DNA from: an uncultured Acidobacteriota bacterium
Lineage (GTDB): Bacteria > Acidobacteriota > Vicinamibacteria > Vicinamibacterales > CAVVIG01
Length of the DNA: 64,000 nucleotides
Direction: 5' to 3'
Assembly (NCBI GenBank): GCA_963711505.1
Contig: CAVQEJ010000003.1
Coordinates: 2,439,720 to 2,503,719 of the forward strand
The position numbers and the translations under genes are program-made. The notes under the pieces were generated by a model. That model was not told the origin of the DNA. It ran no database searches and saw only the letters and a list, made by a program, of their open reading frames with translations. Below, piece by piece: positions 26,168-59,358 of the stretch; the first letter of the stretch is position 1, and every line of letters starts with the position of its first letter.

Positions 26168-26205
26168 CCGGGCGGGCCGCCAGGCCCACACGGACGAGCC
26201 GACAA

Positions 26206-26228: not shown

Positions 26229-26237
26229 GCGCGCCTC

Positions 26238-38814: not shown

Positions 38815-38831
38815 GCCGCCGTACAGACCAC

Positions 38832-38863
38832 GTGCCGGGCGGACCCTGCGGTCCGTCCGGCAC
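38832..38863. terminator. 14-bp-stem hairpin between convergent genes
   Basis: GTGCCGGGCGGACC-ctgc-GGTCCGTCCGGCAC, with one G-T pair. Confidence 0.35.
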
Positions 38864-38899
38864 GCCATCGCCTTCCATCGATTCCAGTCCTTCTTCCGC

Positions 38900-40511: not shown

Positions 40512-42419
40512 CTAGCCGCAGGAGAGGCACTTGTGAGCCAGCTTGGCCCCCAGCTTCTGCAGCAGGGCAATCGTCTCGGGGAACGGGCTGATCCGCTGCA
40601 CCGGGCCGTTGGCCAGGTCGGGAATCGTCTGCCCCTTCCGGTTGACGGCCTTCACGTTGGCGCCCTTGGAGACGAGATACAGGATCATCTCGTTGTCCCC
40701 ATGGGCCGCGGCGTTGTGCAGCGCCGTGTTGCCGTCGGCGTCCGCCTCGTTCACGTCCGCGTGCAGCTCCTCGACGAGGTACTTCACGGCCGCCAGCATG
40801 CCTGTCGGCGCGTAGCGGTGATGGTTCGCCGTGAAGCTGGAGCCGTAGGCCTCGCCCGATGCCGCGAGCAGCGGCGTCACGTCCGGCCCTCCGATCGCCA
40901 CCGGCGGACGACCCGACGGATCCTTCTTCGCCTTGGCGGCGGCCGCGTCGTCCAGGTTGCCCGTACCCGTCGGACGGCGGCCCTTCGGCTTCTTCGTCGT
41001 GATCGTCGGATCGGCCCCGTGCGCCATCAGCAGCTTCATCGCCGCGATGTCATCGGCCCACGCCGCCCGGAAGAACGGAGTCGCCCCCGTCTCGTCGACG
41101 CCCGACTGGTCGAAGTTGTAGCCCTGGTACCAGACCTTTTCCTTCAGCCGGACGTTCGGCTTCGCTCCGCGGTCCAGCAGATCCTGCATGAGCTGCAGGT
41201 AGGCCGTCTTCTGCTGCTTGTAGGCGGTCGGCTGCGGATACAGCGTGCGCGGCGCCCAGACACAGTTCAGCACCGCGTAGAGCGGCGTCACGCCGTTGAC
41301 CTGCGCCGCGTTCGGATCGGCGCCCTTGGCGAGCAGCTCCTCGGCGAGGTCGAAGTGGCCGTTGATGATCGCGCTCAGCAGCGGGCTGGTGTGGTCGGCC
41401 GGATTGACCTCGTTGACATCCGCGCCGGCGGCGAGCAGCGCCCGCACCGACTCGACGTTCCCCTGCCGCGTGGCGAACTCCAGCGCCGTCAGGCCGCCCT
41501 GCGTCCCCACCAGCTTCACGTAGCCGCCGGTGAAGTCGAACGCCGGGGGCTGCGCCTTCTTCTTCGCCGGCGTCTCGCCGGGAATGCCGGCGGGCTTGGC
41601 GCCCGGCTCGACCGCGGCGTCCTCGTCCTCGTCCTCGTCCGGCTGTGCCTGCGACTTCGCCTCGGCCGCGGGCTTCACTGCCGCTTCCGCCGCCGGCTTG
41701 CCCTCCGTCTTCGGCTTCGCCTCGGGCTTCTCTTCCGGCTTGGCCGCGCTGGCCGCCGCTCCCGATGACTGGCGGCGTCCGAAGCTCGGCAGCCGCGGAT
41801 CGTCCTTCGGCAGCTTCGTCCAGTCGAGCACCTTCGTCGTGAGCTTCACGTCGGCCCCGTGCTGGAGCAGCACGTTGAGGGCACCGGTGCGGTTGTAGGC
41901 GGCGGCGAACATCAGCGCCGTCTCGCCCTTGGCCGATTCGCGGGCGTTCACCTCGGCGCCGTGCGCGATCAGCGCCTCCACGGACGGCGTGCTGCCGGCA
42001 GCGGCCGCCAGCATGAGGGCCGTCGCGCCCGACGACGTGACCGTCTTCGGGTTGGCGCCCGCCTTCAGCAGGGCCTCGACGACGTCGGGGTGGGCGTTCT
42101 TCGCCGCCATGTGGAGGGGCGTGTAGGCGCCCAGCCGCGTGGTGGCGCCGACGTCGCCGCCGGCGTAGATCAGCATCTGCACGAGGTCCAGGTTGCCGTC
42201 CAGCGCCGCCCAGTGCAGGGCGGTCATGCCGTCGCCCTGGGCCGCGTTGACGTCGCCGCCCTGCTGGAGCAGCGTCTTCACGACCGCCGTGTCGTGCCGC
42301 TGAGCGGCATCGGCCACCGGCGAGTCGCTGGACGCGGCGCCCAGCAGCGCCGTGCAGCAGAGCGCCGCGACGGCGCTCAGCGAGACGCCACGGATCAGTC
42401 TGCGGGTCATGCTCGCCAT
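40512..42419 (-). CDS. secreted ankyrin-repeat protein, cassette 1
   Basis: In-frame ATG 42419 of ORF 40512..42635. The signal peptide is MASMTRRLIRGVSLSAVAALCCTALLGAASS. ANK repeats include DGMTALHWAALDGNLDLVQMLIYAGGDV and GNTALHNAAAHGDNEMILYLVSKGANV. A K/A/P/E-rich linker divides the protein, and the C-terminus is KLAHKCLSCG*. Confidence 0.85.
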   Translation of the reverse strand: MASMTRRLIRGVSLSAVAALCCTALLGAASSDSPVADAAQRHDTAVVKTLLQQGGDVNAAQGDGMTALHWAALDGNLDLVQMLIYAGGDVGATTRLGAYTPLHMAAKNAHPDVVEALLKAGANPKTVTSSGATALMLAAAAGSTPSVEALIAHGAEVNARESAKGETALMFAAAYNRTGALNVLLQHGADVKLTTKVLDWTKLPKDDPRLPSFGRRQSSGAAASAAKPEEKPEAKPKTEGKPAAEAAVKPAAEAKSQAQPDEDEDEDAAVEPGAKPAGIPGETPAKKKAQPPAFDFTGGYVKLVGTQGGLTALEFATRQGNVESVRALLAAGADVNEVNPADHTSPLLSAIINGHFDLAEELLAKGADPNAAQVNGVTPLYAVLNCVWAPRTLYPQPTAYKQQKTAYLQLMQDLLDRGAKPNVRLKEKVWYQGYNFDQSGVDETGATPFFRAAWADDIAAMKLLMAHGADPTITTKKPKGRRPTGTGNLDDAAAAKAKKDPSGRPPVAIGGPDVTPLLAASGEAYGSSFTANHHRYAPTGMLAAVKYLVEELHADVNEADADGNTALHNAAAHGDNEMILYLVSKGANVKAVNRKGQTIPDLANGPVQRISPFPETIALLQKLGAKLAHKCLSCG

Positions 42420-42421
42420 CG

Positions 42422-43852
42422 TCAGACCCCCTGCGCCTTGTCGGCCGCCGTCGTGGTCTGCTGGACCGGATTCAGCTCCATGACCGCCGAGCTGTCGCCG
42501 AACTTGTCCTTCTCGATGCCCAGCTTCTGGACCATCGCCAGCATCGCGTTGGCCATCGGCGTGTCGACCGGCACGCGGACGTGGTTGTTGCCCGTCAGCT
42601 GGCCATTCGCGTGCCCCAGCACCATCAGCGGGCACCGCTTGTGGTTGTGCAGGTTCGAGTCGCCCATCGGTGAGCCGTAGATGATGAGCGAGTGCTCCAG
42701 CAGGTTGCCGTCGCCGTCCGGCGTGTTCTTCAGCTTGGACAGGAAGTACGGCAGCATGCTCACGTGGTACGAGTTGATCTTCTGGAACGCGCGCAGCCGC
42801 TCTTCCTTCTCCTGGTGGTGCGACGCGTTGTGGAAGCCGGTCGTGACGCCGCTGGCCGGGTAGACGCGGCCCGATCCGTCACGTCCCATCTTGAACGAGA
42901 AGACGCGCGTCAGGTCCGACTGCAGCGCGAGCGCCTGCAGGTCGAACATCAGGTGCACGTGCTCCTCGAACGAGTCGGGCACGCCGATCGGCGCTTCCGG
43001 CAGGTCGCGCGGCTCGCCGCTCCGGTTGTGCGCCTCGATGTTCTGGATGCGCCGCTCGATCTCGCGGATGTCGTCGAGGTAGTTGCCCAGCTTCGCCCGG
43101 TCGTCCGACCCGAGGTGCTTCCGCAGATCCGCGACCTGCGTCCCGACCCAGTCGAGGATGCTGGCGTTCGCCTTCCGCCGCGCCGACCGATTCTCGGGGG
43201 TCGTCCCTTCGCCGAACAGCTGATCGAAGACCGCGCGCGGGTCGCGGATCATCGGCAGCGGCTCGGTCGGCGACGCCCAGGAGATGCTGTCCGTGTAGAC
43301 GCAGGCGTAGCCATAGGCGCAGCCGCCGGCCTGGTCGACCGGCTCGATGCAGAGCTGCATCGACGGAATCGCCGTGTCCTGCCCGAACTGCTTCGCGTAG
43401 AGCTGGTCCAGCGAGATGCCGGCGTGGATGTCCGACCCCTCCGTCTGCTTCGGGTGCGACTGCGTCAGGTAGGTCGCGCTCGACCGGAAGTGGTCGCCGC
43501 CGACCTCCGGCGCCGACCACGCCTCGGCGGAGTGGTCGCTGGTGCCGCTGATGATCGTGAGGTACTCGCGATAGGGCTCGAGCGACCGCAGGCTCGTCGG
43601 GGCCAGGTCGAAGCCCGTACCGGCCGCTGCCGGCGACCACATGTTCTCGCGAATCCCGATCTCCGTTGCGCCGGCCGACCCGTGCACCATTTCGATCGCG
43701 ATCAGGCGCGTCTTCGCCGCCGACTTGGCGGCGGTCGTCTTCGCCCAGGCCGTCCCGGCCGGCACCATCGCATCCAGCATCGGCAGCGCCAGCGTCACGC
43801 CCATGCCCTTCAGAACCGTGCGGCGCGAGATGTGCTTCTTCGTGATGAACAT
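42422..43852 (-). CDS. DUF1552 (HxxSHH) family protein with twin-arginine signal, cassette 1
   Basis: Intact 476-aa ORF. It starts MFITKKHISRRTVLKGMGVTLALP and carries the FHNASHHQEKEER motif. A GAGGAGGGAG SD lies upstream. Confidence 0.9.
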   Translation of the reverse strand: MFITKKHISRRTVLKGMGVTLALPMLDAMVPAGTAWAKTTAAKSAAKTRLIAIEMVHGSAGATEIGIRENMWSPAAAGTGFDLAPTSLRSLEPYREYLTIISGTSDHSAEAWSAPEVGGDHFRSSATYLTQSHPKQTEGSDIHAGISLDQLYAKQFGQDTAIPSMQLCIEPVDQAGGCAYGYACVYTDSISWASPTEPLPMIRDPRAVFDQLFGEGTTPENRSARRKANASILDWVGTQVADLRKHLGSDDRAKLGNYLDDIREIERRIQNIEAHNRSGEPRDLPEAPIGVPDSFEEHVHLMFDLQALALQSDLTRVFSFKMGRDGSGRVYPASGVTTGFHNASHHQEKEERLRAFQKINSYHVSMLPYFLSKLKNTPDGDGNLLEHSLIIYGSPMGDSNLHNHKRCPLMVLGHANGQLTGNNHVRVPVDTPMANAMLAMVQKLGIEKDKFGDSSAVMELNPVQQTTTAADKAQGV

Positions 43853-43895
43853 CGCCTGTCTCCCTCCTCGAATGTCCCCGGCGCGGGATACGAGC

Positions 43896-46701
43896 CTACT
43901 GCTGCGCCGCCGTGCTCAATGTCTGTGTCGTCGCCCGGCTCATCCGGAACGCAGGACTGTTGACGATTCCCAGGACGTAGGAGTCGAACCGGTTCCCGTT
44001 CGTCCCCGCCTTCCGGATGATCGTCCGGACCGTCGGCATGTCGTAGGTCCTCGACCCGGCGGCCCAGCGCGTAGGCCATCAGGTTCTCCGTGAACACGCG
44101 CAGGAACGTGTCCTGATGGTGCAGCAGGGCCTGTTCCAGCCCCGTCAGCCCCGTCATCTTCGTCCCGTCGTACAGGTCGCCCGTCGAGTCGACCGGCGCG
44201 CCGCTGTCCTTGATCCGGTACCGGCCCGTCGGGTCGAAGTTCTCGAGCGACAGCCCAATCGGATCGATGACCTTGTGGCAGGAGGCGCAGAACGGGTTCT
44301 TCCGGTGCTCCTCCATCCGTTCGCGCACCGTCAGCACGCGTCCGCCGGCGACCGAGCCCTCGTCGTCCAGGGCCGGCACGTTGGGCGGGGGCGGGGGCGG
44401 CGGCTGACCGAGCAGGACTTCCAGCACCCACTTGCCGCGCTGCACCGGCGAGGTCCGGTCGGCCACCGAGGTCAGCACCAGCACGCTGCCCTGCCCGAGG
44501 ATCCCGCGGCGGTGCGTGCCGTCCAGCGACACCTTCCGGAAGTCGGGGCCGGCGACACCGGCGATGCCGTAGTGCCGCGCCAGCCGCTCGTTCACGAACG
44601 TATAGTCGGCCGTCAGCAGGTCGAGCACGTTCTGGTCGCCCTTGACGATGCTGTCGAACAGCAGCTGCGTCTCGCGCACCATCGCCTCGCCGAGCGTGGC
44701 GTCGTAGTACGGATAGGTGATCGCGTCGGGATGCATCTTGCTGACGTCCTGCAGCCGCAGCCACTGCGACGCGAACCGCGTCGCCAGCGCCTCCGACTTC
44801 GGGTCCTTCAGCATCCGCTTGACCTGCCGGTCGAGCACCGCCGGCTGCTCCAGCGTGCCCGACGAGGCCACCTTCAGCAGCTCCGCGTCGGGCGGCGCCG
44901 CCCACAGGAAGTAGGACAGCCGCGACGCGAGATCGACGCTGTCGATCCTGTAGTTCTGCCCCGCGCGCACCGTGTCGGGCTGCTCCTCGATGCGGAACAG
45001 GAAGTGCGGACTGACCAGCAGCGCCTGCAGCGCCAGCCGGACGCCCGACTCGAAGTCGCCGTCCTTCCGGCCCTGCCCGTAGAAGTTCATCAGCGCGTCG
45101 ACCTCCGCGGCCGTCACCGGACGGCGGTAGGCCTGGGTCGCCAGCCGCGTCACGATCGAGCGGGCGCACGGCGTCTCCTCGCCCGGCGTCGTCGGCCGGC
45201 ACGTGAAGATCCGCCGGCGGCTCACCGTATCGGAGACGCCGGTCGCCCGGTACGGCCCGGAGACCGTCATGTCGCGCAGGTGCGGCAGCGTCGTGACGCC
45301 GGCCGCGTCGCCGATCTGCGTGTCGGCCAGCGTGTGCTCGTGCGGCTCGAGCATGTCGTCGATCGGGCCGTCGAACCGCTTCAGGAACGCCGCCGAGACC
45401 CGCCGCGGACCGGCCTGCACCTCGATCGGCTCCGTCGTCAGCGTCAGGCCGTTCGGATCCGATTCGTCCATCGACGGCTCGATGTCGAGCAGCGCGACGC
45501 GCCGGCCGTCGATCGACACCTCAATCTGCTCGCCGAGCACCGTCTTGCCGAACAGCTGTCCGGTCGGCGTCCCGTGGAACAGCATCTTGAAGCGGTAGGT
45601 CCCGTCGGCCGGGAACACGTGGACGACCGACAGCCCGCCGCGCGTGCCGAACGGCGCGCCGTCGACGTGCGCCATCTGCGACGCGGTCCGGTCGACCGAG
45701 TAGGTCTCCGAGGTCGCGCCGGCGTCGGGGTCGCCCACGGCCAGGCGGCTGATCGCGTCGGCCGCGCCCAGGTAGCCCTGCAGCAGCGTCGGCGAGAAGT
45801 TCTGCACTTCCGCGATGTTGTCGAAGTTGTGGCTCATCGTGTCGGGCGGGAGCCACTGGCTGACGTCGACGTCGAGCCCGAGCATCACGTCGATCGACTC
45901 GGCGTACTCGGCGCGGTTCAGCCGCTGGAAGGTCCGCCGGCCCGGATCGGGACGCAGCGCGGCCTCCCGGTCGATCCGCCGCTCGAGCGAGACAACGAAC
46001 GCCTGGGCGCTCGCCGCGTCGGGCCGCTTGGCCGCGCCCATCTTCGGCATCATGCCGGCGCGCACCTTCGCAATCATCTGCTCGACCAGTTCGGCGTGCG
46101 CTGCGGCCTTCGCCGCGTCGAACGACGTCATCGAGACGCCGCCCGCCTTCTGCTTGTCGTTGTGGCACTGCGCGCAGATCTCGTGGACGAGCGCGTTCTG
46201 CGTGGCGACCGTCATCGTGTCGCCGGTGTGGGGGAACGTCACGACTTGCTGCACGACCGGCGCCGCCGCCGCCACTGCCGCCGCATTCCCGGAGCCCGGA
46301 ATCGCGCGCGACTGCAGCACGTCGACGAATGCGCTGACGGTCGCCTCGTCGGGCTTCGGCATGCCGGCCGGCGGCATCTGGCCGGCCTTCAGCTTGCGGA
46401 CCATCATGCCGGCGATGTTCGGCGCGATCGATTCCGTCCCCGTGAAGTGCTCCAGGCTGACGCCGCCTGGCATCTGCGCATCGTCGTGGCACCCGATGCA
46501 GTACTCCTGCACCACCTTGACCTGCGCGGCGACCGGCATCGCCCCCGATTCGTGCGACACGGCCGGCGTCGGTCTGGCTGACGACGGCGCGGCGGCCGGC
46601 GCCTGAGCGGCCTGGCCGTGTCTGCCCTCGGCGGACAGACTGAAGCTCAGCGCCGCCACGAGCGCAGCGGTACCGAGAATCCTGAACGTCGAATTCTTCA
46701 T
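43896..46701 (-). CDS. tri-haem DUF1587/DUF1592/DUF1595/DUF1588/DUF1585-family cytochrome, cassette 1; one +1 frame change near 44046
   Basis: ORF 43810..46743, with likely start ATG 46701 (MKNSTFRILGTAALVAALSFSLSA); ATG 46743 is the alternative. Motifs are CIGCH, CAQCH, FCASCHKVIDP, FQRLNRAEY, SPHFLFRIE, SRLSYFLW and QWLRLQD. After AYALGRRVED the true C-terminus YDMPTVRTIIRKAGTNGNRFDSYVLGIVNSPAFRMSRATTQTLSTAAQQ* is in the +1-shifted frame. Confidence 0.85.
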
Positions 46702-47128
46702 TCCCTCGTCCCCCGTCTCCGGTCCAGACAAAAATGTACTCATCAGTATACGGATGAACCGCAGATAAACTCGGCCATTTCTTGCAAGGGATTGTCTCCA
46801 TTTGTCTGCGACGGATGACCTGGCAGGACGTACAGGCCGCCTGGAAGCCCGGAGGCAGGCGTGAATTCCACCAAATGGACCTATTTATGGTCGATCGGGA
46901 GGGAAGAGCGGGTGACCGGCGATCTCGCGGGTGGCGCCGGACGGGGGCCCGGCCCGCGCCGCAGGCGCCTCACCCGTCGGGGTGGAACCGGCGCCGACCG
47001 GGGACGGGCCACGGGCGGGCTGTCCGGTGACAGGACCCGCCGGATGACCGAACGCGCCAGGTGGCGGCGCCGTCATCCGCCGTCAATCGTCAATCGTCGA
47101 GATCAGTCGAATCGGGGCGACGGCCGGT

Positions 47129-48940
47129 CTAGCCGCCGCACGACAGGCACTTGTGGAGCAGCTTGCCGCCGAGCCGCTCCACCAGCGCAATCGTCTTCGG
47201 ATACGGATTGACGCGCTGCACCGGGCCGTTGGCCATGTCGGCGACCGACTGGCCGTTGCGGTTGATCGCGGCGATGTCGGCCCCCTTCGACACGAGGAAC
47301 AGGATCATCGCGTTGTCGCCGCGGGCGGCGGCGTTGTGCAGCGCGGTATTGCCGTCGGCATCGCGGGCGTTCACGTTGACGTGCAGGTCGTCGACGAGGT
47401 ACTTCACGGCCCTCAGCGCCCCGGTCGGTGCGAAGCGGTGCTGATTCGACGTCAGGCTCCACCCGTATCCCTCACCGGCCGCCGCCAGCAGCGGCGAGAT
47501 GTCGGGGCCGCCCACCGCCACCGGCGCGAGGCCGGAGTGATCCTTCTTGGAGATGCTGTGATAGAAGCTGGCCGACGATTCCGGCTTCTTCGTCCAGACG
47601 TGCGGATTGGCGCCATGGGCCACGAGCATCTTCATCGCCGGCACGTCGGCGGCATAGGCGGCACGCCAGAACGGCGTCGCGCCCGTCTCGTCCAGCCCCG
47701 ACAGGTCGAAGTTGTAGCCCGAGTACCAGACCTTCTCCTTCAGCCGGGCGTTCGGGTTCGCCCCGTGGTCGAGCAGATCCTGGAGCAGCGTCAGGTAGCT
47801 CGTCTTCTGCTGCTTGTAGGCGGTCGGCTGCGGATAGTCCACCTTCGACGACCACTGGCAGTTGAGCACGGCGTAGAGCGGCGTGACGCCGTTGTTGGAC
47901 TCGGCGAGATTCGGATCGGCCCCGTGGGCGAGCAGTTGCTCCGCGAGATCGTAGTGCCCGTTGATGATGGCGACGAGCAGCGGGCTGGAGTGATCGCCCG
48001 GATCGACCTCGTTGACGTCCGCGCCGTGCGCCAGCAGCGCCTGCGCCGCGTCGCCGTAACCCTGGCGGGCGGCGAACAGCAGGGCGCTCAGCCCGCCCTG
48101 CGTGCCGACGAGCTTCCAGTACGGCGTCCGCCGCGGCCGGCGGTTCGCCGGCTTCCGGCCGGCACCGGTATTGGCGGCCGTGCCCGGCCCCTCGCCCGTC
48201 TTTCCGGCGGGCGCCTTCGCCGGTGCCGTCTTCGCGCCGGCCGGCTTCGCCCCTGCCGTCTTCCCGTCGGCGCCCTTGGCCTTCGTCGCGCCGAATCCGC
48301 CGAAGTGCGGCAGGCGCGGATCGCTCGCCGGCAGCTTCGCCCAGTCGAGCACCTTGCTGGTCGGCTTCCAGTCGGCGCCGTGCGCGAGCAGCACCTGCAT
48401 GGCGTCGGTCCGGTCGTAGGCCGCGGCCAGCATCAGCGCCGTCTCGCCCCGAACGTGCTCCCGGGCGTTGACGTCGGCACCCGCCTCGACGAGCGCGGTC
48501 ACGGCCGGCACGCTGCCCGAGGCGGCGGCCAGCATGAGGGGCGTCGTGCCGTACGCATCGACCTGTCCCGGATCGGCACCGGCCTTCAGCAGCGCCGCGA
48601 CCAGGTCGGCGTGGCCGTCCTTGGCCGCGATGTCCAGGGCCGTGTAGCCGCCGATCCGGGTCGTCGCCCCGGTGTTGGCTCCGGCGTAGATCAGCATCTG
48701 CGCCATCGGCACGTCGCCCTCGAGCGCCGCCCAGTGCAGCGCCGTCATGCCGTCATTCTGCGCGGCGTTGACGTCGGTGCCCTGTTCCAGCAGGCTCTTC
48801 ACGGCGGCCCGATCGCCACGCATCGCCGCGTCGGCCACCGGAGAATCGCCCGGCGCTGCCGCCAGCATCGCCGTGGCGGACACCGCTACGGCCGCCACGA
48901 CCAGACTCGCGCCCAGTCCGCTCATCACTCGACGAAGCAT
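47129..48940 (-). CDS. secreted ankyrin-repeat protein, cassette 2
   Basis: In-frame ATG 48940 of ORF 47129..49009. The signal peptide is MLRRVMSGLGASLVVAAVAVSATAMLAAA, ANK repeats run throughout, and the C-terminus is KLLHKCLSCGG*. Confidence 0.85.
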   Translation of the reverse strand: MLRRVMSGLGASLVVAAVAVSATAMLAAAPGDSPVADAAMRGDRAAVKSLLEQGTDVNAAQNDGMTALHWAALEGDVPMAQMLIYAGANTGATTRIGGYTALDIAAKDGHADLVAALLKAGADPGQVDAYGTTPLMLAAASGSVPAVTALVEAGADVNAREHVRGETALMLAAAYDRTDAMQVLLAHGADWKPTSKVLDWAKLPASDPRLPHFGGFGATKAKGADGKTAGAKPAGAKTAPAKAPAGKTGEGPGTAANTGAGRKPANRRPRRTPYWKLVGTQGGLSALLFAARQGYGDAAQALLAHGADVNEVDPGDHSSPLLVAIINGHYDLAEQLLAHGADPNLAESNNGVTPLYAVLNCQWSSKVDYPQPTAYKQQKTSYLTLLQDLLDHGANPNARLKEKVWYSGYNFDLSGLDETGATPFWRAAYAADVPAMKMLVAHGANPHVWTKKPESSASFYHSISKKDHSGLAPVAVGGPDISPLLAAAGEGYGWSLTSNQHRFAPTGALRAVKYLVDDLHVNVNARDADGNTALHNAAARGDNAMILFLVSKGADIAAINRNGQSVADMANGPVQRVNPYPKTIALVERLGGKLLHKCLSCGG

Positions 48941-49265
48941 CCCGCGTTCCTCCCGTCGGGCCCGGCCACTGCGGCCGGGCAGTCCGCGCTCAGCGACTCT
49001 TCCCGGCATCCCTGGTCCCGTCGGCCTGGCTGCTGTCGGCGCTCAGCGCGCCCGCCCGGCTCATCCGGAACGCCGGACTGTTCACGATCCCCAGGACGAA
49101 CGAGGAGAACCGGTTCCCCTGGCGCGCCGCCCGGTGCACGACGGTGCGCACGGTCGGCATGTCGTAGTAGTGGATCCGCCGGCCGAGCGCGTAGGCCATC
49201 AGATTCTCGGTGAACACGTTCAGGAACGTCTCCTGATGCCCGACCATCGCGTGCTCCAGCCCGGG

Positions 49266-49690
49266 CAGGCCCACCATCTTCGTGCCGTCATAGAGCGTCG
49301 TCGAGGCATCCACCGGCACGCCGTTGTCCTTGATCCGCCAGTGCCCGGTCGGATCGAAGTTCTCGAGCGACAGCCCGATCGGATCGATCACCGAGTGGCA
49401 GGAGGCACAGAACGGATTGGCGCGGTGCTCCTCCATCTGCTGGCGCACCGACAGCGGCTTGCCGTTCTGCACCGACGGCGCCGTGTCGTCCAGGTTCGTG
49501 TTGACGCCGGGCGGCGGCGGGGGCGGCGGTTGTCCGAGCAGCACCTCCAGCACCCACTTGCCGCGCAGCACCGGGTCGCTCCGGTTGGCCACCGAGGTCT
49601 CGACCAGGATGCTCCCCTCACCGAGGATCCCGCGGCGATGCGTCCCCTCGAGCGAGACCTTCCGGAACTGCGGCCCCGCCACGTCGGGGA
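49266..49690. repeat. near-identical block B shared with 55692..56116
   Basis: Off-frame ORF pairs 49288..49557/55714..55983 (1 difference in 89 aa) and 49324..49698/55750..56124 (3 differences in 124 aa) imply about 99% nucleotide identity. Boundaries are approximate. Confidence 0.7.
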
Positions 49691-50857
49691 TGCCGTAGAA
49701 GGCGGCGAGCTGCTGATTGACGTAGGTGTAGTCGGCCGTCAGCAGGTCCATCACGTCGCGGTCGCCCTTGACGATGCTGTCGAAGAAGAGCTCGGTCTCC
49801 TTCTTCATCGAGGCGCCGAGCGTGGTGTCGTACTGCGGGTACATCAGATCGTCCGGCGCCACCTTGTCGACGTCCTGCAGCCGCAGCCACTGGGCCGCGA
49901 ACCGGGTCGACAAGCGCCGTCGATCGCGGAGTCCTTCAGCATCCGCTTGCACCTGCGCGTCCAGCACCTGCGGCTCGTGCAGCCGCCCCTGCTGCGCCAG
50001 CTTCACCAGCTCGCCGCATCGGGCGGCGTGGCCCAGAGGAAGTACGACAGCCGCGAGGCGAGCGCCAGGTCGCCGATCCGGTAGTCCTGTCCCGGCCGCA
50101 CCGCCACCGGCTCGCGCTCGAGCCGGAAGAGGAAGTGCGGGCTGGCCAGCACCGCCTGCAGCGCCATCCGGACGCCGTTCTCGAAGTCCCCCTGCTTGCG
50201 GCCGAGCCGGTAGAAGCGCATCAGCGCCTGCAGCTCGCCGGGCGTCACGGGCCGCCGGTAGGCCTCGGTCGCCAGATTCGTCACGATCTTCGTGGCGCAC
50301 GGCGTCTCGCCGGCAGCCGTCACGGGCCGACAGACGAAGATCTTCCGGCGGCTCACGGTGTTCGACACGCCGGTCACGTGGAACGGGCCGACGACGGTCA
50401 TCGTCCGCAGATGCGGCAGCGTCGTGATGCCCTGGGCGCTGCCGATGTCGAGATCGGCGAGCGTGTGGCTCTCGGGTTCGAGCAGGTCGTCGATGGCGGC
50501 ATCCGACCGCTTCGGAAAGGCGGCCGACACGCGGTGGGGACCGGCCGCCACCTCGATCGGCGGCGTCTGCAGCATGAGGCCATGGGGATCCGACTCGCTC
50601 ATCTGCGGATTGATCGGCAGCAGCGCCGCCCGGCGGCCGTCGATCGACAGCTCGATCTTCTCGTCCTTCACGGTCGAACCGTAGAGCTCGCCGGTGGAGA
50701 CGCCGAACAGCAGCAGCTTGAAGCGGTAGGAGCCGTCGGCCGGGAAGATGTGCACGACCGACAGGCCGCCGCGCGTGCCGTACGGCGCCCCGGCGACGTA
50801 GTGCATCTGCGACGCCAGAGAATTGGCGGCATAGGTGGTCGATGCCGCCGCCGCGCG

Positions 50858-51799
50858 GGGGTCACCGACGGCGAGGCGGGAGATCTGGTCGGCCGCGTCC
50901 AGGTAGCTCTGGAGCAGCGTCGGCGAGAACGTCTGCACGTTCGCGATGTTGTCGAAGTTGTGGCTCATCGTGTCCGGCGGCAGCCACTGGCTCACGTCCA
51001 CGTCCAGCCCCAGCATCGACTCCACCGACGAGGTGTACTCCGCCCGGTTCAGCCGCTGGAACGTCCGGAACCCGGGGTCGGGATGCGCCGCGGCCGCCTT
51101 GTCGATCCGGTTCTCCAGCGACACCGCCAGCGCGTGGAGCGTCGGCCGGTCCGGCCGCTTCGGCGCGCTCGCCTTCGGCATCATCCCGGCCAGCAGCTTC
51201 GCGATCATGTCCTCGACCAGCTTCGGGTGCTGGGGCGCCGTCGCCAGGTCGAAGTGTTCGAACGACACCCCTCCCGGCTTCCGCTTGTCGGTATGGCACT
51301 GCGTGCAGATCGTGTGCACCAGCTTGTTCTGCGTCGCCACCGACATGTAGTCGCCCTGGTGCGCGAACGCGACGATCGTCGGCTTGAACGCCTCCGGACG
51401 ACGCGGCCTGGCCCGTCGCATGGCTCGGCATCGGCAGCCCGACCGCCTCGGTCGACAGCGTCTCCAGGAACGCCGACAGCGTCGCCGCATCCGGCCGCGG
51501 CATGCCGGCCGGCGGCATCGCCCCCGCCTTCAGCTTGCCGATCATCATCGTGATGATGTGCATGTCCGGCTTGGCGCCGTCGAACTTCTCGAGCGACAGC
51601 CCGCCGGTCACCTGCGCATCGTCGTGGCAGGGCACGCAGGTACCTGCTGCACCAGCTTGTTCTGCTGCGCCACCGGCATCGCGCGCCGGGGCGGCCGCGC
51701 GCTCTGCAACCCCGCGGCGCTCGCGTCCACCGTCAAGCCGACACTCAGCCCCAGGCCGAGCAGCAACGCGCTCAGAAATCCGAACGTACGCTTCCGCAT
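50858..51799. repeat. near-identical block A shared with 57279..58242
   Basis: ORF pair 50946..51350/57367..57771 differs at 3 of 134 residues. The encoded N-terminal ~300 aa of DUF1592 copies 2 and 3 are almost identical. Boundaries are approximate. Confidence 0.7.
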
Positions 51800-51960
51800 C
51801 CGGTGGTCTCCGCGCTCAGCCGGCCCATCGAAGCGCCGTACCTCTCGCCGGTGAGCGGTCAGATGTCGAGATCAAATACGAAGAAGAGGCCCGGCGGACA
51901 ATCCGCCGCGCCTCGGTCCGGCGCCGGGAATTCCTCGAGAACGAATGCCGGATGAGTGCG

Positions 51961-52022
51961 CGGACCGCCGGGGCACTCCGGGGCGGTCCGGCGGCGGGAG
52001 GCCGGCGACGCGGCCTCCCGCC
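51961..52022 (-). terminator. two tandem GC-rich hairpins just downstream of the cassette-3 ankyrin gene
   Basis: The first is CGGACCGCC...GGCGGTCCG (9-bp stem, 51961-51990). The second is GGCGGGAGGCCG-gcgacg-CGGCCTCCCGCC (perfect 12-bp stem, 51993-52022). The stop codon is at 52032-52034 and there is no U-tract. Confidence 0.45.
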
Positions 52023-52031
52023 TTCAGTTGT

Positions 52032-53963
52032 CTAGCCGCCGCACGACACGCACTTGTGCAGCAGCTTCGCGCCGAGCCGCTCGGCCAGCGCGATGGTCTT
52101 CGGGTAGGGGCTCACGCGCTGCACCGGGCCGTTGGCCATGTCGGCGACCGACTGGCCGCTGCGGTTGAGCGCCTTGATGTTCGCCCCCCTGGACACGAGA
52201 TACAGGATCATCGCGTTGTCCCCGCGGGCGGCGGCGTTGTGGAGGGCGCTATTGCCGTCGGCGTCGCGGGCGTTCACGTCGGCGTGAAGATCCTCGACGA
52301 GGTACTTCACGGCCGCCAGCATGCCCGTGGGCGCGTAGCGGTGATGGTTCGACGTCAGGCTCCAGCCGTAGCCCTCACCCGAGGCCGCGAGCAGCGGCGA
52401 GACGTCCGGTCCGCCGTCGGGCACCGGCGCCATCCCCGACGGGTCCTTCGGGAGGGCCTTCTGCTTGTTGTAGAAGCCGGCCCGGGCCTTCGGCTTCTTG
52501 GTCCAGATGTTCGGGTTCGCGCCGTACTTCACGAGCAGCTTCATGGCCGGCACGTCGTCGCCGTAGGCCGCGCGCCAGAAGGGCGTCGCGCCGGTGGCAT
52601 CCAGCCCGCGCTGATCGAAGTTGTAGGCGGCGTACCAGACCGGCTCCTTCAGCCGCACGTTGGGGTTCGCGCCGTGCTTCAGCAGATCCCGCATCAGCGT
52701 GATGTGGTCGGTCTGCTGCTGCTTGTAGGCGGTCGGCTGCGGATACAGCGCCTTGTCGGACCAGACGCAGTTCAGCACCGCGTAGAGCGGCGTGACGCCG
52801 TTCTTCTGCGCCAGATTCGGGTTGGCGCCGGCCTGCAGCAGCTTCTCGGCCAGGTCGAAGCGGCCGTTGATGACCGCGATGAGCAGCGGGCTCGTGTTGT
52901 CGCCCGGGTCGACCTCGTTCACGTCGGCGCCGTGCTTGAGCAGCGCCTCCACCGTGTCGGTGTAGCCCTGGCGCGAGGCGAACAGCAGCGCCGTCAGTCC
53001 GCCCTGCTTGCCGACCAGCCGCGGGTACTGCAGGAACGGGTTGCTCCCGGCGCCGCCGCCGGCGCCGGCCTGCTGGCCACGGTTGGGCAGCGCGACGACC
53101 GCGTCGCTGGCCCCGTCCTTCTTCGCCTTGCCATCCGCCTTCTTCGGCATGGCGAGCTTGGCGTCCTTCGGCGCGGCCTCGGTCGCGGCCTTCGGGCTCG
53201 CATTCGCCGCGGCGTTGTTCTCGGCCTTGGGCGCGTTGGCGGCCGACTTCTTCGCATCCGCCTTCCGGCCGGCGCCCCCTTGCGTCGGCCCCTTCTTCGC
53301 GCCGGCCTTGCCGCCGCTCTTGAAGTACCGCGAGAAGTCCGGCAGGCGCGGGTCGCCCTTCGGCAGATGCGCCCAGTCGACGGTGCTGGTCGCGGGCTTC
53401 CAGTCGGCCCCGTGGTCGAGCAGCGCGTTGACGACATCGGTCCGCCCGTTGGCGGACGCGAACATCAGCGCCGTCTCGTGCTTCACCTGCTCGGTGGCGT
53501 TGACCTTCGCGCCGGCAGCGAGCAGGTCGTTGACCGCCTGCACGCTGCCCGACTCGGCGGCCAGCATCAGCGGCGTCGTGCCGTGCACGTCGGTGCCGTT
53601 CGCGTCGGCGCCGCCCTTCAGCAGCGCCTCGACCATGGCCGCGTGGCCGTCCTTGGCGGCGATGTCGAGCGCCGTGAAACCGCCCACGCGGGTCGACGCG
53701 CTCACGTCGGCGCCGGCGTAGAGCAGCATCTTCGCCAGATCGACGTCACCGTTGATCGCGGCCCAGTGCAGCGCGGTCATGCCGTCCTGCTGGGCCGCGT
53801 TCACGTCGGCCCCGTGCGTCAGCAGGGACCGGACGGTCGCCACGTTCCCCACCATCGCGGCATCCGCGACCGGTGTGTGGCTGGGGGCGGCGGCCAGGAG
53901 CACGGAACAGCACAGCGCTCCCGCCAGCCCGAGTCCGATACCGCTCATCATTCTCCGCAACAT
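52032..53963 (-). CDS. secreted ankyrin-repeat protein, cassette 3
   Basis: Intact 643-aa ORF. The signal peptide is MLRRMMSGIGLGLAGALCCSVLLAAA, followed by ANK repeats and a long K/A/G-rich linker. The C-terminus is KLLHKCVSCGG*. Confidence 0.9.
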   Translation of the reverse strand: MLRRMMSGIGLGLAGALCCSVLLAAAPSHTPVADAAMVGNVATVRSLLTHGADVNAAQQDGMTALHWAAINGDVDLAKMLLYAGADVSASTRVGGFTALDIAAKDGHAAMVEALLKGGADANGTDVHGTTPLMLAAESGSVQAVNDLLAAGAKVNATEQVKHETALMFASANGRTDVVNALLDHGADWKPATSTVDWAHLPKGDPRLPDFSRYFKSGGKAGAKKGPTQGGAGRKADAKKSAANAPKAENNAAANASPKAATEAAPKDAKLAMPKKADGKAKKDGASDAVVALPNRGQQAGAGGGAGSNPFLQYPRLVGKQGGLTALLFASRQGYTDTVEALLKHGADVNEVDPGDNTSPLLIAVINGRFDLAEKLLQAGANPNLAQKNGVTPLYAVLNCVWSDKALYPQPTAYKQQQTDHITLMRDLLKHGANPNVRLKEPVWYAAYNFDQRGLDATGATPFWRAAYGDDVPAMKLLVKYGANPNIWTKKPKARAGFYNKQKALPKDPSGMAPVPDGGPDVSPLLAASGEGYGWSLTSNHHRYAPTGMLAAVKYLVEDLHADVNARDADGNSALHNAAARGDNAMILYLVSRGANIKALNRSGQSVADMANGPVQRVSPYPKTIALAERLGAKLLHKCVSCGG

Positions 53964-53981
53964 AGCCTCTCTGCTCCCTGC

Positions 53982-55412
53982 CTACGCGGCGGTCGTCGTC
54001 ATCGTGGTCGGGTTCAGTTCAATCGCGGCGGTGCTGTTCTGGAACTTCTCCTTGTGCACCCCGAGCATGTTGAGCGCGGTCAGCCAGACGTTCGCCATCG
54101 GGGTGTTGTCGGGCGCCATCACGTGGTTGCCCCCCCTCAAGGCGCCGTTCGCGTGGCCGAGCATGAAGAGCGGCAGCCGGAAGTGGTTGTGCAGGTTCGA
54201 GTCGCCCATCGGCGATCCGTAGATGAGCATCGACTTCTCCAGCAGGTTCTTGTCGCCCTCCTGGATGCTCTTCAGCTTGTTGGCCAGATACGGCACCATG
54301 CTCACGTGGTAGGAGTTGATCCCCTTGAAGACCTCCAGCCGGTCCTTCTTCTCCTGGTGGTGCGACGTCGGGTGGAAGGCCGCATTCGCCGACTTGGGGT
54401 TGAACTGCGCGGCCCCCGGATAGACACGGCCCGACGCATCGCGGCCCAGCTTGAAGGCGAAGACGCGCGTCAGATCCGACTGGAACGCCGCCGCCATGAG
54501 GTCCATCATCAGGTGGACGTGCTCGTGGAACGAGTCGGGCACGCCGATCGGCGCCTCCGGCAGGTCACGCTGCGCGCCGCTGCTGTTGTGCGCCTCGACG
54601 TTCTGGATGCGGCGCTCGATCTCCCGGACGTTGTCGAGGTAGTCGCCCAGCTTCACCCGGTCCTGCGGACCGAGCTGATTCTTCAGCTGCGCCACCTGGC
54701 CGTTGATCCAGTCCAGGATGCTCGCGTTCGCCTCGCGGCGCTGCGCCCGGTCCTGCGGCGTGCTGCCGAGCCCGAACAGCTGGTTGAACACGGCCCGCGG
54801 GTCGCGGATCATCGGCAGCGGCTCGGTGGACGACGCCCACGAGATCGTGTCCATGTAGACGCAGGCGTAGCCGTAGGCGCAGCCGCCGCCCTGGTCCACC
54901 GGCTCGATGCACAGCTGGATCGACGGGATGGCGCTGTCCTGCCCGTACTCCTTCGCGTAGATCTGGTCGATCGACATCCCCGCGTGGATGTCCGACCCCT
55001 CGGTCTGCTTCGGATGGGCCTGCGTCAGGTAGGTGGCGCTCGACCGGAAGTGATCGCCGCCGATCTCCGGCGCCGACCACGCCTCGGCGGCGTGGTTCCG
55101 CGTGTTGCTGACGATCGTCAGATACTCACGCAGCGGCTCGAGTGACTTGAGGCTCGACGGCGAGAGATCGAAGTCGGTGCCGACGCCGGCCGGCGACCAC
55201 ATGTTCTCCTCCCAGCCGATCTTCGCGCTCCCGGCGCAGCCGTGCACCATCTCCATCGCGACCAGCCGCGGCCGCTCCATCGCCTTGCCCGCCGGGGTCT
55301 TGGCCCACGCGGTCCCCGCGGGGACCATCGCGTCGAGGAAGGGAAGGGCCATGGTCACGCCCATGCCCTTCAGAACCGCCCGTCGGGAGATGTGCTTCTT
55401 GGTAATGAACAT
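53982..55412 (-). CDS. DUF1552 (HxxSHH) family protein with twin-arginine signal, cassette 3
   Basis: Intact 476-aa ORF. It starts MFITKKHISRRAVLKGMGVTMALP and carries FHPTSHHQEKKDR. The upstream gene's stop is linked as TGA-GGAGGAGCG-ATG. Confidence 0.9.
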   Translation of the reverse strand: MFITKKHISRRAVLKGMGVTMALPFLDAMVPAGTAWAKTPAGKAMERPRLVAMEMVHGCAGSAKIGWEENMWSPAGVGTDFDLSPSSLKSLEPLREYLTIVSNTRNHAAEAWSAPEIGGDHFRSSATYLTQAHPKQTEGSDIHAGMSIDQIYAKEYGQDSAIPSIQLCIEPVDQGGGCAYGYACVYMDTISWASSTEPLPMIRDPRAVFNQLFGLGSTPQDRAQRREANASILDWINGQVAQLKNQLGPQDRVKLGDYLDNVREIERRIQNVEAHNSSGAQRDLPEAPIGVPDSFHEHVHLMMDLMAAAFQSDLTRVFAFKLGRDASGRVYPGAAQFNPKSANAAFHPTSHHQEKKDRLEVFKGINSYHVSMVPYLANKLKSIQEGDKNLLEKSMLIYGSPMGDSNLHNHFRLPLFMLGHANGALRGGNHVMAPDNTPMANVWLTALNMLGVHKEKFQNSTAAIELNPTTMTTTAA

Positions 55413-55421
55413 CGCTCCTCC

Positions 55422-58242
55422 TCAGAACCCTTTCTTCACGTGCTGGTCGGGTTGGCTGCTGTCCGCGCTCAGCGCGCCCGCCCTGCTCATCCGGAAGGCC
55501 GGGCTGTTGACGACCCCCAGGACGAACGAAGAGAAGCGGTTCCCGTTGAGTGCCGCCTTGTGATCGATTTCGCGCACGGTCGGCATGTCGTAGTAGTGGA
55601 TCCGCCGGCCGATCGCGTAGGCCATCAGGTTCTCCGTGAACACGTTCAGGAACGTGGTCTTGTGCTCCGTCATGGCCTGCACCAGTCCGGACAGGCCCAC
55701 CATCTTCGTGCCGTCATAGAGCGTCGTCGAGGCATCCACCGGCACGCCGTTGTCCTTGATCCGCCAGTGCCCGGTCGGATCGAAGTTCTCGAGCGACAGC
55801 CCGATCGGATCGATCACCGAGTGGCAGGAGGCACAGAACGGATTGGCGCGGTGCTCCTCCATCTGCTGCCGCACCGACAGCGGCTTGCCGTTCTGCACCG
55901 ACGGCGCCGTGTCGTCCAGGTTCGTGTTGACGCCGGGCGGCGGCGGGGGCGGCGGTTGTCCGAGCAGCACCTCCAGCACCCACTTGCCGCGCAGCACCGG
56001 GTCGCTCCGGTTGGCCACCGAGGTCTCGACCAGGACGCTCCCCTCACCGAGGATCCCGCGGCGATGCGTCCCCTCGAGCGAGACCTTCCGGAACTGCGAG
56101 CCCGCCACGTCCGGAATGCCGTAGAACCTCGCCAGCGGTCCGTTCACGTACGTGTAGTCGGCCGTCAGCAGGTCCATCACGTCGCGATCGCCCTTGACGA
56201 TGCTGTCGAAGAAGTGCTCCGTCTCCTCCTTCATGTCGTCACCGAGCGTCGCGTCGTATTGCGGATACGCCAGCGCATCCGGCCGGACCTTGTCGACGTC
56301 CTGCAGCCGGAGCCACTGGGCGACGAACCGGGTCGACAGCGCATACGAGCGCGGATCCTTCAGCATCCGCTTCACCTGCGCGTCGAGCACCTGCGGCTCG
56401 TGCAGCCGCCCCTGCTGCGCCAGCTTCACCAGTTCCGCATCCGGCGGCGTGGCCCAGAGGAAGTACGACAGCCGCGAGGCCAGCGCCAGGTCGCCGATCC
56501 GGTAGTCCTGCCCCGGCTGCGCCGACACCGGCTCGCGCTCGAGGCGGAAGAGGAAGTGCGGGCTGGCCAGCACCGCCTGCAGCGCCATCCGGACGCCGTT
56601 CTCGAAGTCGCCCTGCTTGCGGCCGAGCTGATAGAAGTGCATCAGCGCCTGCAGCTCGTCGCGTGTCACCGGCCGCCGGTACGCCTCGGTCGCCAGGTGG
56701 TTGACGATCTTCGTGGCGCACGGCGCCTCGTCGGCCTGCGTCACCGGCCGGCAGATGAAGATCTTCCGGCGGCTCACGGTGTCCGACACGCCCGTCACGT
56801 GGAACGGGCCGGTGACGGTCAGATCCCGCACGTGCGGCAGCGTCGTCACGCCCGGGCCGTCGCCGATCTGCGTGTCGGCCAGCGTGTAGCGGTGCGGCGA
56901 CAGCAGGTCATCGATCGGGCCGTCGAAGTCGCTGAGGAAGGCGGCCGCGATCCGGTGCGGCCCGGCCGTCACCTCGATCTTCGGCGTGATGACGTTGAGT
57001 CCGTGCTTGTCGGACTCGCTCATGTGCGGATTGATCGTGAAGAGCGCCACCCGCCGGCCGTCGACCGAGAGCTCCATCTTCTCGCCCTTGACGGTCGAGC
57101 CGTAGAGCTCTCCGGTCGGAACGGCGAAGAACAGCACGTCGAACGTGTAGCTCCCGTCGGCCGGGAAGACCTTCACGACCGACAGGCCGCCGCGCGTGCC
57201 GTACGGCGCGCCCGGCACGTGCCCCATCTGGGAAGCCGTCGTGCTCGCCGCGTAGGTGGTGGCCGACGCCGTGGCGTTCGGGTCGCCGACGGCGAGGCGG
57301 GAGATCTGGTCGGCCGCGTCCAGGTAGCTCTGGAGCAGCGTCGGCGAGAACGTCTGCACGTTCGCGATGTTGTCGAAGTTGTGGCTCATCGTGTCCGGCG
57401 GCAGCCACTGGCTCACGTCCACGTCCAGCCCCAGCATCGACTCCACCGACGAGGTGTACTCCGCCCGGTTCAGCCGCTGGAACGTCCGGAACCCGGGGTC
57501 GGGATGCGCCGCCGCCGACTTGTCGATCCGGTTCTCCAGCGACACCGCCAGCGCGTGGAGCGTCGGCCGGTCCGGCCGCTTCGGCGCGCTCGCCTTCGGC
57601 ATCATCCCGGCCAGCAGCTTCGCGATCATGTCCTCGACCAGCTTCGGGTGCCGGGGCGCCGTCGCCAGATCGAAGTGCTCGAACGACACCCCGCCCGGCT
57701 TCCGCTTGTCGGTATGGCACTGCGTGCAGATCGTGTGCACCAGCGTGTTCTGCGTCGCCACCGACATGTAGTCGCCCTGGTGCGCGAACGCGACGATCGT
57801 CGGCTTGAACGCACCCGACGACGCGGACGACGACGCAGCCTGGCCCGTCGCATGGCTCGGCATCGGCAGCCCGACCGCCTCGGTCGACAGCGTCTCCAGG
57901 AACGCCGACAGCGTCGCCGCATCCGGCCGCGGCATCCCGGCCGGCGGCATCGCCCCCGCCTTCAGCTTGCCGATCATCATCGTGATGATGTGCATGTCCG
58001 GGTTGGCGCCGTCGAACTTCTCGAGCGACAGCCCGCCGGTCACCTGCGCATCGTCGTGGCAGGGCACGCAGTACCTGCTGCACCAGCTTGTTCTGCTGCG
58101 CCACCGGCATCGCGCCCGAGGCGGCCGGCATCGGCGCCGCCGGCGTCTGCAACCCCGCGGCGCTCGCGTCCACCGTCAAGCCGACACTCACGCCCAGGCC
58201 GAGCAGCAACGCGCTCAGAAATCCGAACGTACGCTTCGTCAT
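55422..58242 (-). CDS. tri-haem DUF1592-family cytochrome, cassette 3; one +1 frame change at ~58074 just before the first CxxCH
   Basis: The main ORF is 55422..58067 (881 aa) with CTQCH, FCASCHSVIDP, FQRLNRAEY, SPHFLFRLE and SRLSYFLW. The signal peptide MTKRTFGFLSALLLGLGVSVGLTVDASA...NKLVQQ is in ORF 56908..58329 (ATG 58242). Deleting one base restores QQ-YCVPCHDDAQVTGG. Confidence 0.85.
55692..56116. repeat. near-identical block B, partner of 49266..49690
   Basis: See the partner entry. The offset is about 6426 nt. Confidence 0.7.
57279..58242. repeat. near-identical block A, partner of 50858..51799
   Basis: See the partner entry. The offset is about 6421 nt. Confidence 0.7.
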
Positions 58243-59226: not shown

Positions 59227-59358
59227 CGTCTGCCCCCTCACTTCGTGCCCGATCGGCGCGTCGCGCGCCACCCGCTCACGGCGCGAACGCCGCCGCCGGC
59301 ATGACACCGGCCGGCTTCTCCATCTTACGCCAGGTGCCCGCGCGGGCCCGGCGCGGCC

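Follow-up and report, generated by a model that had tools for sequence, protein, structure and literature searches.

Genes encoding PSCyt3-domain cytochromes usually adjoin genes of the DUF1552 family, and the function of these genes is unknown (PMC5615132 and its supplement). Here, we consider positions 40512 to 58242 of a 64,000-nucleotide (nt) stretch of contig CAVQEJ010000003.1 from an uncultured Acidobacteriota bacterium (hereafter, the window; G+C content of ~70%), where such cytochrome genes (A) and DUF1552 genes (B) are accompanied by a third gene (C) for a predicted exported ankyrin-repeat (ANK) protein; A, B, and C denote the first, second, and third gene of each cassette. As in the Planctomycetes/Verrucomicrobia pair formed by “group III” PSCyt3 (PF07627)/PSD4 (PF07631) cytochromes and DUF1552, the A genes have the same domain architecture, and the DUF1552 gene, present in cassettes 1 and 3, lies immediately downstream. 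By all the sequence-level features that define it, A-B can be placed as a member of this known, uncharacterized pair. However, here and in at least 80 loci inspected in Acidobacteriota and Gemmatimonadota, a gene for an exported ankyrin protein has a fixed place after the DUF1552 gene, whereas a sister clade and the described Planctomycetes/Verrucomicrobia pairs are without one, and the A proteins of the window sub-clade carry an extra N-terminal heme module.

Where an ankyrin protein of the periplasm is encoded next to a catalase gene, it reportedly binds the catalase and increases its activity or heme loading (PMC10294975). Like C, the ankyrin proteins of the AnkB-KatB (Pseudomonas aeruginosa), Cj1386-KatA (Campylobacter jejuni), and AnkB-CatB (Xanthomonas) systems are encoded in a heme-protein operon; in our case, a signal peptide–bearing ankyrin protein is encoded with a CxxCH protein, on the same strand, in 80 of 80 loci. 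The partner here is a c-type cytochrome plus DUF1552 rather than a catalase, and C is further marked by a pair of ANK blocks, inserts specific to its family, and a CxxC at its end, the likeness being apparent at the level of the generic repeat. The ankyrin partners of catalases are also far smaller than C (600 to 640 amino acids, aa).

Two other systems are relevant. PSCyt2/PSD1 (DUF1549/DUF1553) genes pair with DUF1501 (PMC5615132). The logic is parallel, a planctomycete cytochrome followed by an uncharacterized DUF gene, but the Pfam families are different, none of these domains occurs in the window, and no ankyrin partner is reported. DUF1501 proteins are exported through the twin-arginine translocation (Tat) pathway and belong to the alkaline-phosphatase clan, which agrees with the fold modeled for B. 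Cbp2D of Cellvibrio japonicus contains a DUF1587 domain, and one of its c-type heme domains transfers electrons to lytic polysaccharide monooxygenases (PMC8981238). Like A, it is extracytoplasmic and combines c-type heme domains with DUF1587/PSD3 and a carbohydrate-binding module (CBM); unlike A, it has neither the PSCyt3/PSD4/PSD5 body nor a DUF1552 or ankyrin partner. The literature searched on these DUF/Pfam domains, and on ankyrin proteins in these phyla, contained no ankyrin partner, no description of the trio, and no characterized function. A preliminary description of the window had considered an exported ankyrin protein as third partner to be undescribed, and this still stands: as far as we found, a fixed ankyrin partner with a CxxC tail, restricted to one clade and frequent in tandem arrays of two abundant soil phyla, has not been reported.

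The three cassettes lie head to tail on the minus strand. Cassette 1 extends from the A1 start at 58242 to the C1 stop at 52032, cassette 2 from 51799 (A2) to 47129 (C2), and cassette 3 from the A3 start at 46701 to the C3 stop at 40512, start and stop positions being in agreement with the preliminary description. The Pfam searches that it had called for confirmed its family assignments of all three genes. Gene A matches PSD3, PSD5, PSD4, PSCyt3, and PSD2 (DUF1587/1595/1592/1588/1585) plus cytochrome c, with additional matches to Cytochrome_CBB3 and PSCyt1 in A3; the five PSD/PSCyt3 domains exceed Pfam cut-offs in A1 and A3 and are spread over two frames in A2. Gene B matches HXXSHH/DUF1552 (PF07586; E-values of 4e-79 for B1 and 5e-87 for B3), and ankyrin repeats are matched by gene C of all three cassettes.

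A1 (55422 to 58242) encodes a multi-domain c-type cytochrome of 939 aa once one G at 58074 is removed, with the layout of two N-terminal cytochrome c modules, PSD3, a β-sandwich, PSD5, PSD4, PSCyt3, and PSD2. A3 (43896 to 46701) encodes a multi-domain c-type cytochrome of 934 aa once one C at 44046 is removed, while A2 (48990 to 51799) is a disrupted cytochrome gene distributed over at least three frames and is not followed by a B gene. B1 (53982 to 55412) and B3 (42422 to 43852) are DUF1552/HXXSHH proteins of 476 aa each, with the twin-arginine leaders SRRAVLKG and SRRTVLKG and the motifs HPTSHH and HNASHH, respectively. The ankyrin proteins are C1 (52032 to 53963; 643 aa; two ANK blocks with a low-complexity linker; ending in HKCVSCGG), C2 (47129 to 48943; intact, 603 aa from MLRRV; ending in HKCLSCGG; 69% identical to C1), and C3 (40512 to 42419; 635 aa; ending in HKCLSCG; matched at 100% by P0001 in the homologue search). 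Look-ups by exact sequence for B3, C3 (P0001), and a paralogous B (P0164) retrieved no record. The occurrence of B in cassettes 1 and 3 only, the B leader and HxxSHH motifs, and the presence in every cassette of a C protein of ~600 to 640 aa with a hydrophobic leader are thus as previously described. The same is true of the short gaps between genes. The A1-B1 junction reads TGA-GGAGGAGCG-ATG, with 9 nt that contain a Shine-Dalgarno (SD) sequence; the other gaps are 18 nt (B1-C1), 43 nt (A3-B3), 2 nt (B3-C3), and 46 nt (A2-C2), with SD-like sequences present. Two points had to be corrected. The heme motifs CIGCH/CAQCH/CASCH, earlier ascribed to copy 1, are those of cassette 3, and the repaired A1 has CVPCH/CTQCH/CASCH. 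The size of ~935 to 940 aa given for the A proteins, with three CxxCH, holds for A1 and A3 after removal of one base from each, but none of the A genes is an intact open reading frame (ORF).

To see how widely the ankyrin gene is linked to the pair, we scanned one genome per GTDB species for relatives of C using an alignment-based search, which gave at least 556 encoded relatives, and inspected the best 80 of these with 10-kb flanks by tblastn with A, B, and C. Full-length C homologues number in the thousands and are mostly from Vicinamibacterales and other Acidobacteriota. In all 80 C-anchored loci, a B gene is located directly 5′ of C on the same strand, and A precedes B wherever the contig reaches far enough. 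The loci belong to Acidobacteriota (Vicinamibacterales and “Marinacidobacterales”) and Gemmatimonadota (Gemmatimonadales and Longimicrobiales), with a few metagenome-assembled genomes (MAGs) labeled otherwise. The same loci contain 106 B genes, of which 97 have C within the next 500 nt and 5 have C only after another A-B pair; 3 are at a contig end, and 1, from a divergent pair, has nothing downstream. A look-up anchored at B returned an independent ABC-ABC array with Pfam-annotated gene calls. The claim that the ankyrin partner is fixed beyond this locus, for which a neighborhood survey had been named in advance as a refuting test, is therefore upheld. Clustering of the flanking ORFs revealed no fourth gene family common to more than 7 of the 80 loci, which makes A-B-C the whole conserved unit.

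Approximately one-quarter of the 80 loci contain at least two cassettes within ±10 kb, in the arrangements ABCABC, ABCABCAB, ABCcba, CABABC, and ABCC. Among these arrangements, one locus (L001, 4035 to 7752) is A-B-C-C with two tandem ankyrin genes, and five (L014, L021, L025, L043, and L075) are A-B-A-B-C with one downstream ankyrin gene for two pairs. The preliminary description spoke of a triplication with divergence. Three cassettes are indeed present, but they are not three intact copies, A2 being heavily disrupted and B missing from cassette 2. Relatives, too, often have arrays of several cassettes, in which paralogues of one locus share only 57 to 74% identity; on sequence comparison, the region thus looks less like a local triplication than like an array of old paralogues.

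The divergent B protein of locus L012, which is 41% identical to B3 and has HxxTHH, was used as a probe in a scan of metagenome contigs and yielded 80 relatives (L083 to L162) that form a sister clade. Here, A is directly 5′ of B in 48 of the 48 loci with enough sequence, while a C-family gene is found downstream in 0 of 43, and clustering of flanking ORFs gave no conserved alternative third gene. H-x-x-T-H-H replaces H-x-x-S-H-H in 78 of 78 sister-clade B proteins, and the unit is strictly one of two genes. The L012 genome has such a sister pair (7322 to 10311, minus strand) alongside an ABC cassette. Because the sister clade retains A throughout and lacks C-family genes, C is best regarded as a clade-specific third partner: judged by gene neighborhoods, the ankyrin gene was added to a known pair in one clade; it is not typical of the pair in general, nor is it adjacent by chance. 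One clade of the DUF1592/DUF1552 pair has thus recruited a dedicated exported ankyrin protein, in Acidobacteriota and Gemmatimonadota and often in multiple copies. For an uncharacterized pair, this provides experimental handles in the form of a putative binding partner, a mutable CxxC tail, and a natural control, the sister clade without the ankyrin gene.

The pairwise identity matrices of the three proteins are correlated (0.76 for A-B, 0.75 for A-C, and 0.69 for B-C), which fits inheritance as a unit and is no proof of contact. The C paralogues of tandem cassettes are 58 to 62% identical, i.e., about as diverged as A. Since each cassette keeps its own C that has diverged as much as A, the data suggest cognate rather than generic pairing of A/B with C and favor it over a generic chaperone.

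The C proteins share a common build of two ANK blocks with a low-complexity Ala/Pro/Lys-rich linker between them and conserved non-ANK inserts (NCxW, YPQP, VWYxxYxxD, and ANGPxxR). An N-terminal hydrophobic leader is present in 57 of 58 of them. A feature absent from the preliminary description is a CxxC located no more than 7 residues from the C terminus in 95 of 97 C proteins, usually as K-C-V-S-C at the very end (typically NNHKCVSC-COOH); in the tails encoded in the window (52032 to 52060, 47129 to 47160, and 40512 to 40540), G or GG follows the CxxC. Because the RR of the C1 to C3 leaders is not conserved in homologues, we rejected Tat export of C, and the general secretion (Sec) pathway is likelier. 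A lipoprotein signal was also rejected, there being no lipobox before the leader cysteines. NCBIfam and PADLOC returned only generic ANK matches for C, and NCBIfam has no model for A or B. Given that PADLOC gives only such matches, the cassette is not a known defense system.

B is the most conserved of the three proteins (68 to 74% identity even between paralogues). HxxSHH is present in 101 of 102 B proteins, and the invariant residues are E54, D120-H121, H341/S344/H345/H346, and N400/H402/N403/H404. Every B N terminus displayed has SRRxxLKG, followed in B1 and B3 by MGVT[LM]ALP; Pfam TAT_signal matches 24 of 35 B homologues weakly. With this N-terminal motif, export of B via Tat is predicted. 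When an AlphaFold2 model of B3 [predicted local distance difference test score (pLDDT) of 70.7; predicted template modeling score (pTM) of 0.78] was compared with the Protein Data Bank (PDB) using Foldseek, all top 50 matches were from the alkaline-phosphatase superfamily (E-values of 3e-4 to 0.35; TM-scores of 0.36 to 0.40): choline and carrageenan sulfatases, LtaS-type enzymes, phosphonate monoester hydrolases, and autotaxin/ENPPs. No match was obtained for the B sequence against the PDB or the Pfam sulfatase models. The model is consistent with a remote resemblance of B to the alkaline-phosphatase/sulfatase superfamily.

For A, the CxxCH motifs, three per window protein, predict covalent attachment of heme c. 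Exactly two motifs are present in 85 of 91 A relatives, one in the N-terminal cytochrome c module and one (C-x-S-C-H) in PSCyt3, and in 33 of 33 sister-clade A proteins. Only the window A genes and their closest relatives (L002 and L004) have three, so the “tri-heme” character given in the preliminary description is a trait of a sub-clade and not of the family. The export signals themselves, i.e., the Tat motif of B, the leader of C, and CxxCH in A, are kept across relatives, in support of the export that the preliminary description predicted. The structure of A was modeled on an intact homologue (P0242, 83% identical to A3; pLDDT of 76.6) and consists of helical cytochrome modules, a β-sandwich at residues ~325 to 483, and a large helical C-terminal body. 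PDB neighbors were found for the β-sandwich only, and these were the BcsB carbohydrate-binding domain, CBM35/36/6, and PNGase F (E-values of 7e-3 to 0.3); the model thus points weakly to a CBM-like β-sandwich in A. A separate observation on PSCyt3 is a run of seven prolines at residues ~757 to 765 of A3 (LLGQPPPPPPPNVP) that is invariant across the C-linked clade in the alignment; a run of at least five prolines occurs in 21 of 33 sister-clade A proteins.

The region is best explained as a self-contained operon of three genes that is present in two complete copies and a degenerate third one. Taken as a whole, with C as a cassette-specific periplasmic partner of A-B, this reading has, in our estimate, a probability of roughly 0.55. 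In the mechanism we propose, A would be a Sec-exported c-type cytochrome with CxxCH motifs, a CBM-like β-sandwich, and the large helical PSD/PSCyt3 body; B would be a Tat-exported, histidine-rich alkaline phosphatase/sulfatase-like protein and probably the metal-dependent catalytic subunit; and C would be a Sec-exported ankyrin protein serving in the periplasm as the cassette-specific binding partner of both. Through its two ANK solenoids, C could dock on its cognate A and/or B and function as a stoichiometric adaptor or, alternatively, a dedicated assembly factor, and the CxxC tail may contribute thiol or metal chemistry, such as a relay, needed by the complex. The hemes of A may connect the active site of B to the respiratory chain or to a substrate, possibly a glycan, bound on the β-sandwich. 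What the sequences show is the order of the genes, their domains and export signals, the conservation of the motifs, and a strict, clade-specific linkage of C to A-B; the physical complex, the redox role, the role of CxxC, and the substrate are inferred. Co-translation as a complex, which the short gaps had earlier been taken to indicate, and a scaffold or specificity role of C would be part of the same picture. If true, this would be a further and much larger case of a bacterial periplasmic ankyrin protein acting with a heme protein, beyond the small helpers of catalases.

Several points weigh against this interpretation. The Foldseek TM-scores for B are low (0.36 to 0.40), and the alkaline-phosphatase superfamily is hydrolytic or transferase and not redox, which leaves the heme partner unexplained by the fold. 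The A-B-A-B-C and A-B-C-C loci, as well as A-C in the window, are exceptions to a 1:1:1 stoichiometry. When C is exchanged between paralogous cassettes, the A-C correlation drops by little, from 0.75 to 0.70, in an underpowered comparison that involves just 5 multi-cassette loci. Members of the C family more distant than the best 80 of at least 556 loci may be unlinked to A-B. Last, if the frameshifts in the window are real, no intact A is made, A1 and A2 being without a signal peptide and A3 having a garbled PSD2 tail.

A more specific version of the mechanism is a three-subunit periplasmic metallo-heme enzyme of a type not recognized before, in which the ankyrin subunit would clamp a sulfatase-fold catalyst to the cytochrome, the CxxC would act as a redox or metal relay, and the diverged cassettes would be substrate-specific isoenzymes. 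We hold this version tentatively, as possible rather than likely; if it is true, the isoenzymes would be ecologically relevant for the abundant Acidobacteria and Gemmatimonadota of soil.

Among the alternatives, the one that survives best has C as a transient maturation or cofactor-trafficking chaperone and not as a subunit: it would bring or stabilize heme or metal while A or B is being assembled in the periplasm and then leave. The AnkB-KatB, Cj1386-KatA, and AnkB-CatB systems are precedents for such a role (PMC10294975). The five A-B-A-B-C arrays, where one C follows two pairs, also agree with it, as does the presence of the terminal CxxC on a flexible tail in 95 of 97 C proteins. Such a tail resembles those of metallochaperones or thiol-relay proteins, and for C it could maintain the cysteines of the apocytochrome in a reduced state or act as a metal-ion carrier. 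However, a diverged C of its own is usual for each cassette, which is more than a generic chaperone requires; C, with more than 600 aa, two ANK blocks, and non-ANK inserts, is much larger than the catalase-associated ankyrins; and the sister clade, with the same heme motifs, manages without C. Overall, a chaperone function is rather unlikely.

It is also conceivable, though unlikely, that the module is mainly hydrolytic and processes glycans or esters, with B as a sulfatase- or phosphodiesterase-like hydrolase, the A β-sandwich as a polysaccharide binder, accessory hemes, and C as a mere tether. The structural matches are what one would expect in this case, those of the B model being limited to hydrolases of the alkaline-phosphatase superfamily and those of the A β-sandwich including CBMs and the carbohydrate-binding domain of BcsB. 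Furthermore, PSCyt proteins of Verrucomicrobia occasionally contain CBMs and are encoded near sulfatases (PMC5615132), and DUF1587 (PSD3) is present in the cytochrome Cbp2D, to which a role in the degradation of cellulose has been ascribed (PMC8981238). The matches are weak, though (for B, E-values from 3e-4 with TM-scores of 0.36 to 0.40; for A, E-values of at least 7e-3 and local only), and neither a glycoside hydrolase nor a transporter is among the conserved neighbors. In either clade, A retains its two CxxCH motifs (85 of 91 and 33 of 33), which argues that heme is central to A. A sulfatase-like DUF1552 fold together with a CBM-like cytochrome domain would narrow the search for a substrate.

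Another alternative is that the cassettes of the window are pseudogenes, i.e., that the frameshifts in A1 to A3 are real and the locus is decaying. All three A genes are interrupted. A1 has an extra G at 58074 (CAG-G-TAC), just 5′ of the first CxxCH, which in the sequence as written places the signal peptide (58242 to 58075) out of frame with the rest. A3 has an extra C at 44046, inside PSD2; as a result, the final ~55 codons are out of frame, and the ORF continues into B3. A2 contains 13-nt and 11-nt deletions and at least six insertions of 1 to 2 nt, that is, at least eight indels in 2.8 kb, and it shares the extra G of A1. Decay would account for this identical extra G and for a cassette 2 with many indels and without B, and there is no intact A3 protein on record for the contig, the best database match being 87% identical. 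On the other hand, the assembly of the window appears to contain frequent single-base indels. Split genes are also found outside the cassettes, at 26146 to 30049 on the minus strand and 37284 to 38814 on the plus strand: a DEAD-box helicase (DEAD in the frame of ORF 26146-29130 and Helicase_C in that of ORF 26238-27449), an AMP-binding enzyme (N-terminal part in 28238-30049 and C-terminal part in 26146-29130), and an XDH-family molybdopterin subunit (MoCoBD_1 in 37284-39047 and the remainder in 37975-38814). Several related long-read MAGs (L014, L039, and L062) have split A genes as well. Every 1- to 2-nt indel in the A genes is an insertion, and an error common to identical sequence context is expected of systematic base-calling errors. 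Removal of one base restores full-length A1 and A3, which are otherwise open and conserved along their whole length; close relatives of A3, 87 and 83% identical to it, are intact, and so are B1, B3, and C1 to C3. With at least three unrelated genes of the window split likewise, insertions only, split A genes in other MAGs, and intact relatives, the frameshifts of A1 and A3 can most likely be put down to errors of the assembly, and decay of the whole locus is improbable.

Cassette 2 is a different matter. A tblastn search revealed no trace of a B remnant in it. The nucleotide identity between A1 and A2 reaches 97 to 99% over ~0.8 kb close to the 5′ end and once more close to the 3′ end but is 75 to 81% in the middle part. 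Considering that C1 and C2 are only 69% identical, this mosaic suggests either gene conversion between tandem paralogues or cross- or mis-polishing of repeats in the assembly. Cassette 2 is therefore probably a decaying remnant or a poorly assembled or polished repeat.

We also considered C as an ankyrin effector directed at eukaryotes, with the terminal CxxC serving as a CaaX-type prenylation box in the manner of some Legionella Ank effectors, and regard this as highly improbable. C-V-S-C is the exact end of most family members, and there are sub-threshold NCBIfam and PADLOC matches to Legionella Ank effectors and other ANK proteins, but these matches are of the generic-repeat type and far below family cut-offs. 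C has a signal peptide, and its operon partners are two periplasmic proteins, in phyla that are free-living in soil and marine habitats. The register of a CaaX box is also broken in the window, where the C termini are CLSCG, CVSCGG, and CLSCGG and none of C1 to C3 has a cysteine exactly four residues from the end.

Upstream of A3, an AT-richer intergenic stretch at 46702 to 46900 (minus strand) is probably the promoter region of cassette 3's own. An AT-rich stretch is also located 5′ of A1, at 58243 to 58400, and there is none 5′ of A2. No consensus promoter was identified, and the sites returned by a promoter/terminator scan did not outnumber those in shuffled sequence. The regions 5′ of the three A genes share no motif in an alignment, and k-mer enrichment 5′ of 82 A genes yielded nothing but coding k-mers from the preceding C genes. 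A σ54-type promoter 5′ of A3, judged by eye, was rejected since the spacing is wrong. An Rfam scan of the 38- to 64-kb part of the window (E-value of 1 or less) produced no riboswitch or other RNA element from which a cofactor might be guessed.

As to the neighboring genes of the window (Sortilin/BNR, PCYCGC, NDH-2-like, and an ORF designated U), they are found beside other cassettes in at most 2 of 160 loci. ORF U (38900 to 40255, minus strand), located ~256 nt downstream of C3, encodes ~450 aa that include one heme-type motif, CLQCH, and an N-terminal hydrophobic segment, and it had no match in Pfam, NCBIfam, or PDB; its homologues follow a C gene in 2 of the 80 C-anchored loci (L015, 66% identity; L049, 43%). 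On the other side of the array, a gene of the PCYCGC/CYCXC family (58651 to 59307, minus strand) lies directly 5′ of cassette 1 and adjoins a gene for an NDH-2/SQR-like pyridine-nucleotide-disulfide oxidoreductase (59359 to 60645, minus strand), and the two, which are not seen again beside cassettes of other loci, form a thiol or selenium-redox-flavored pair.

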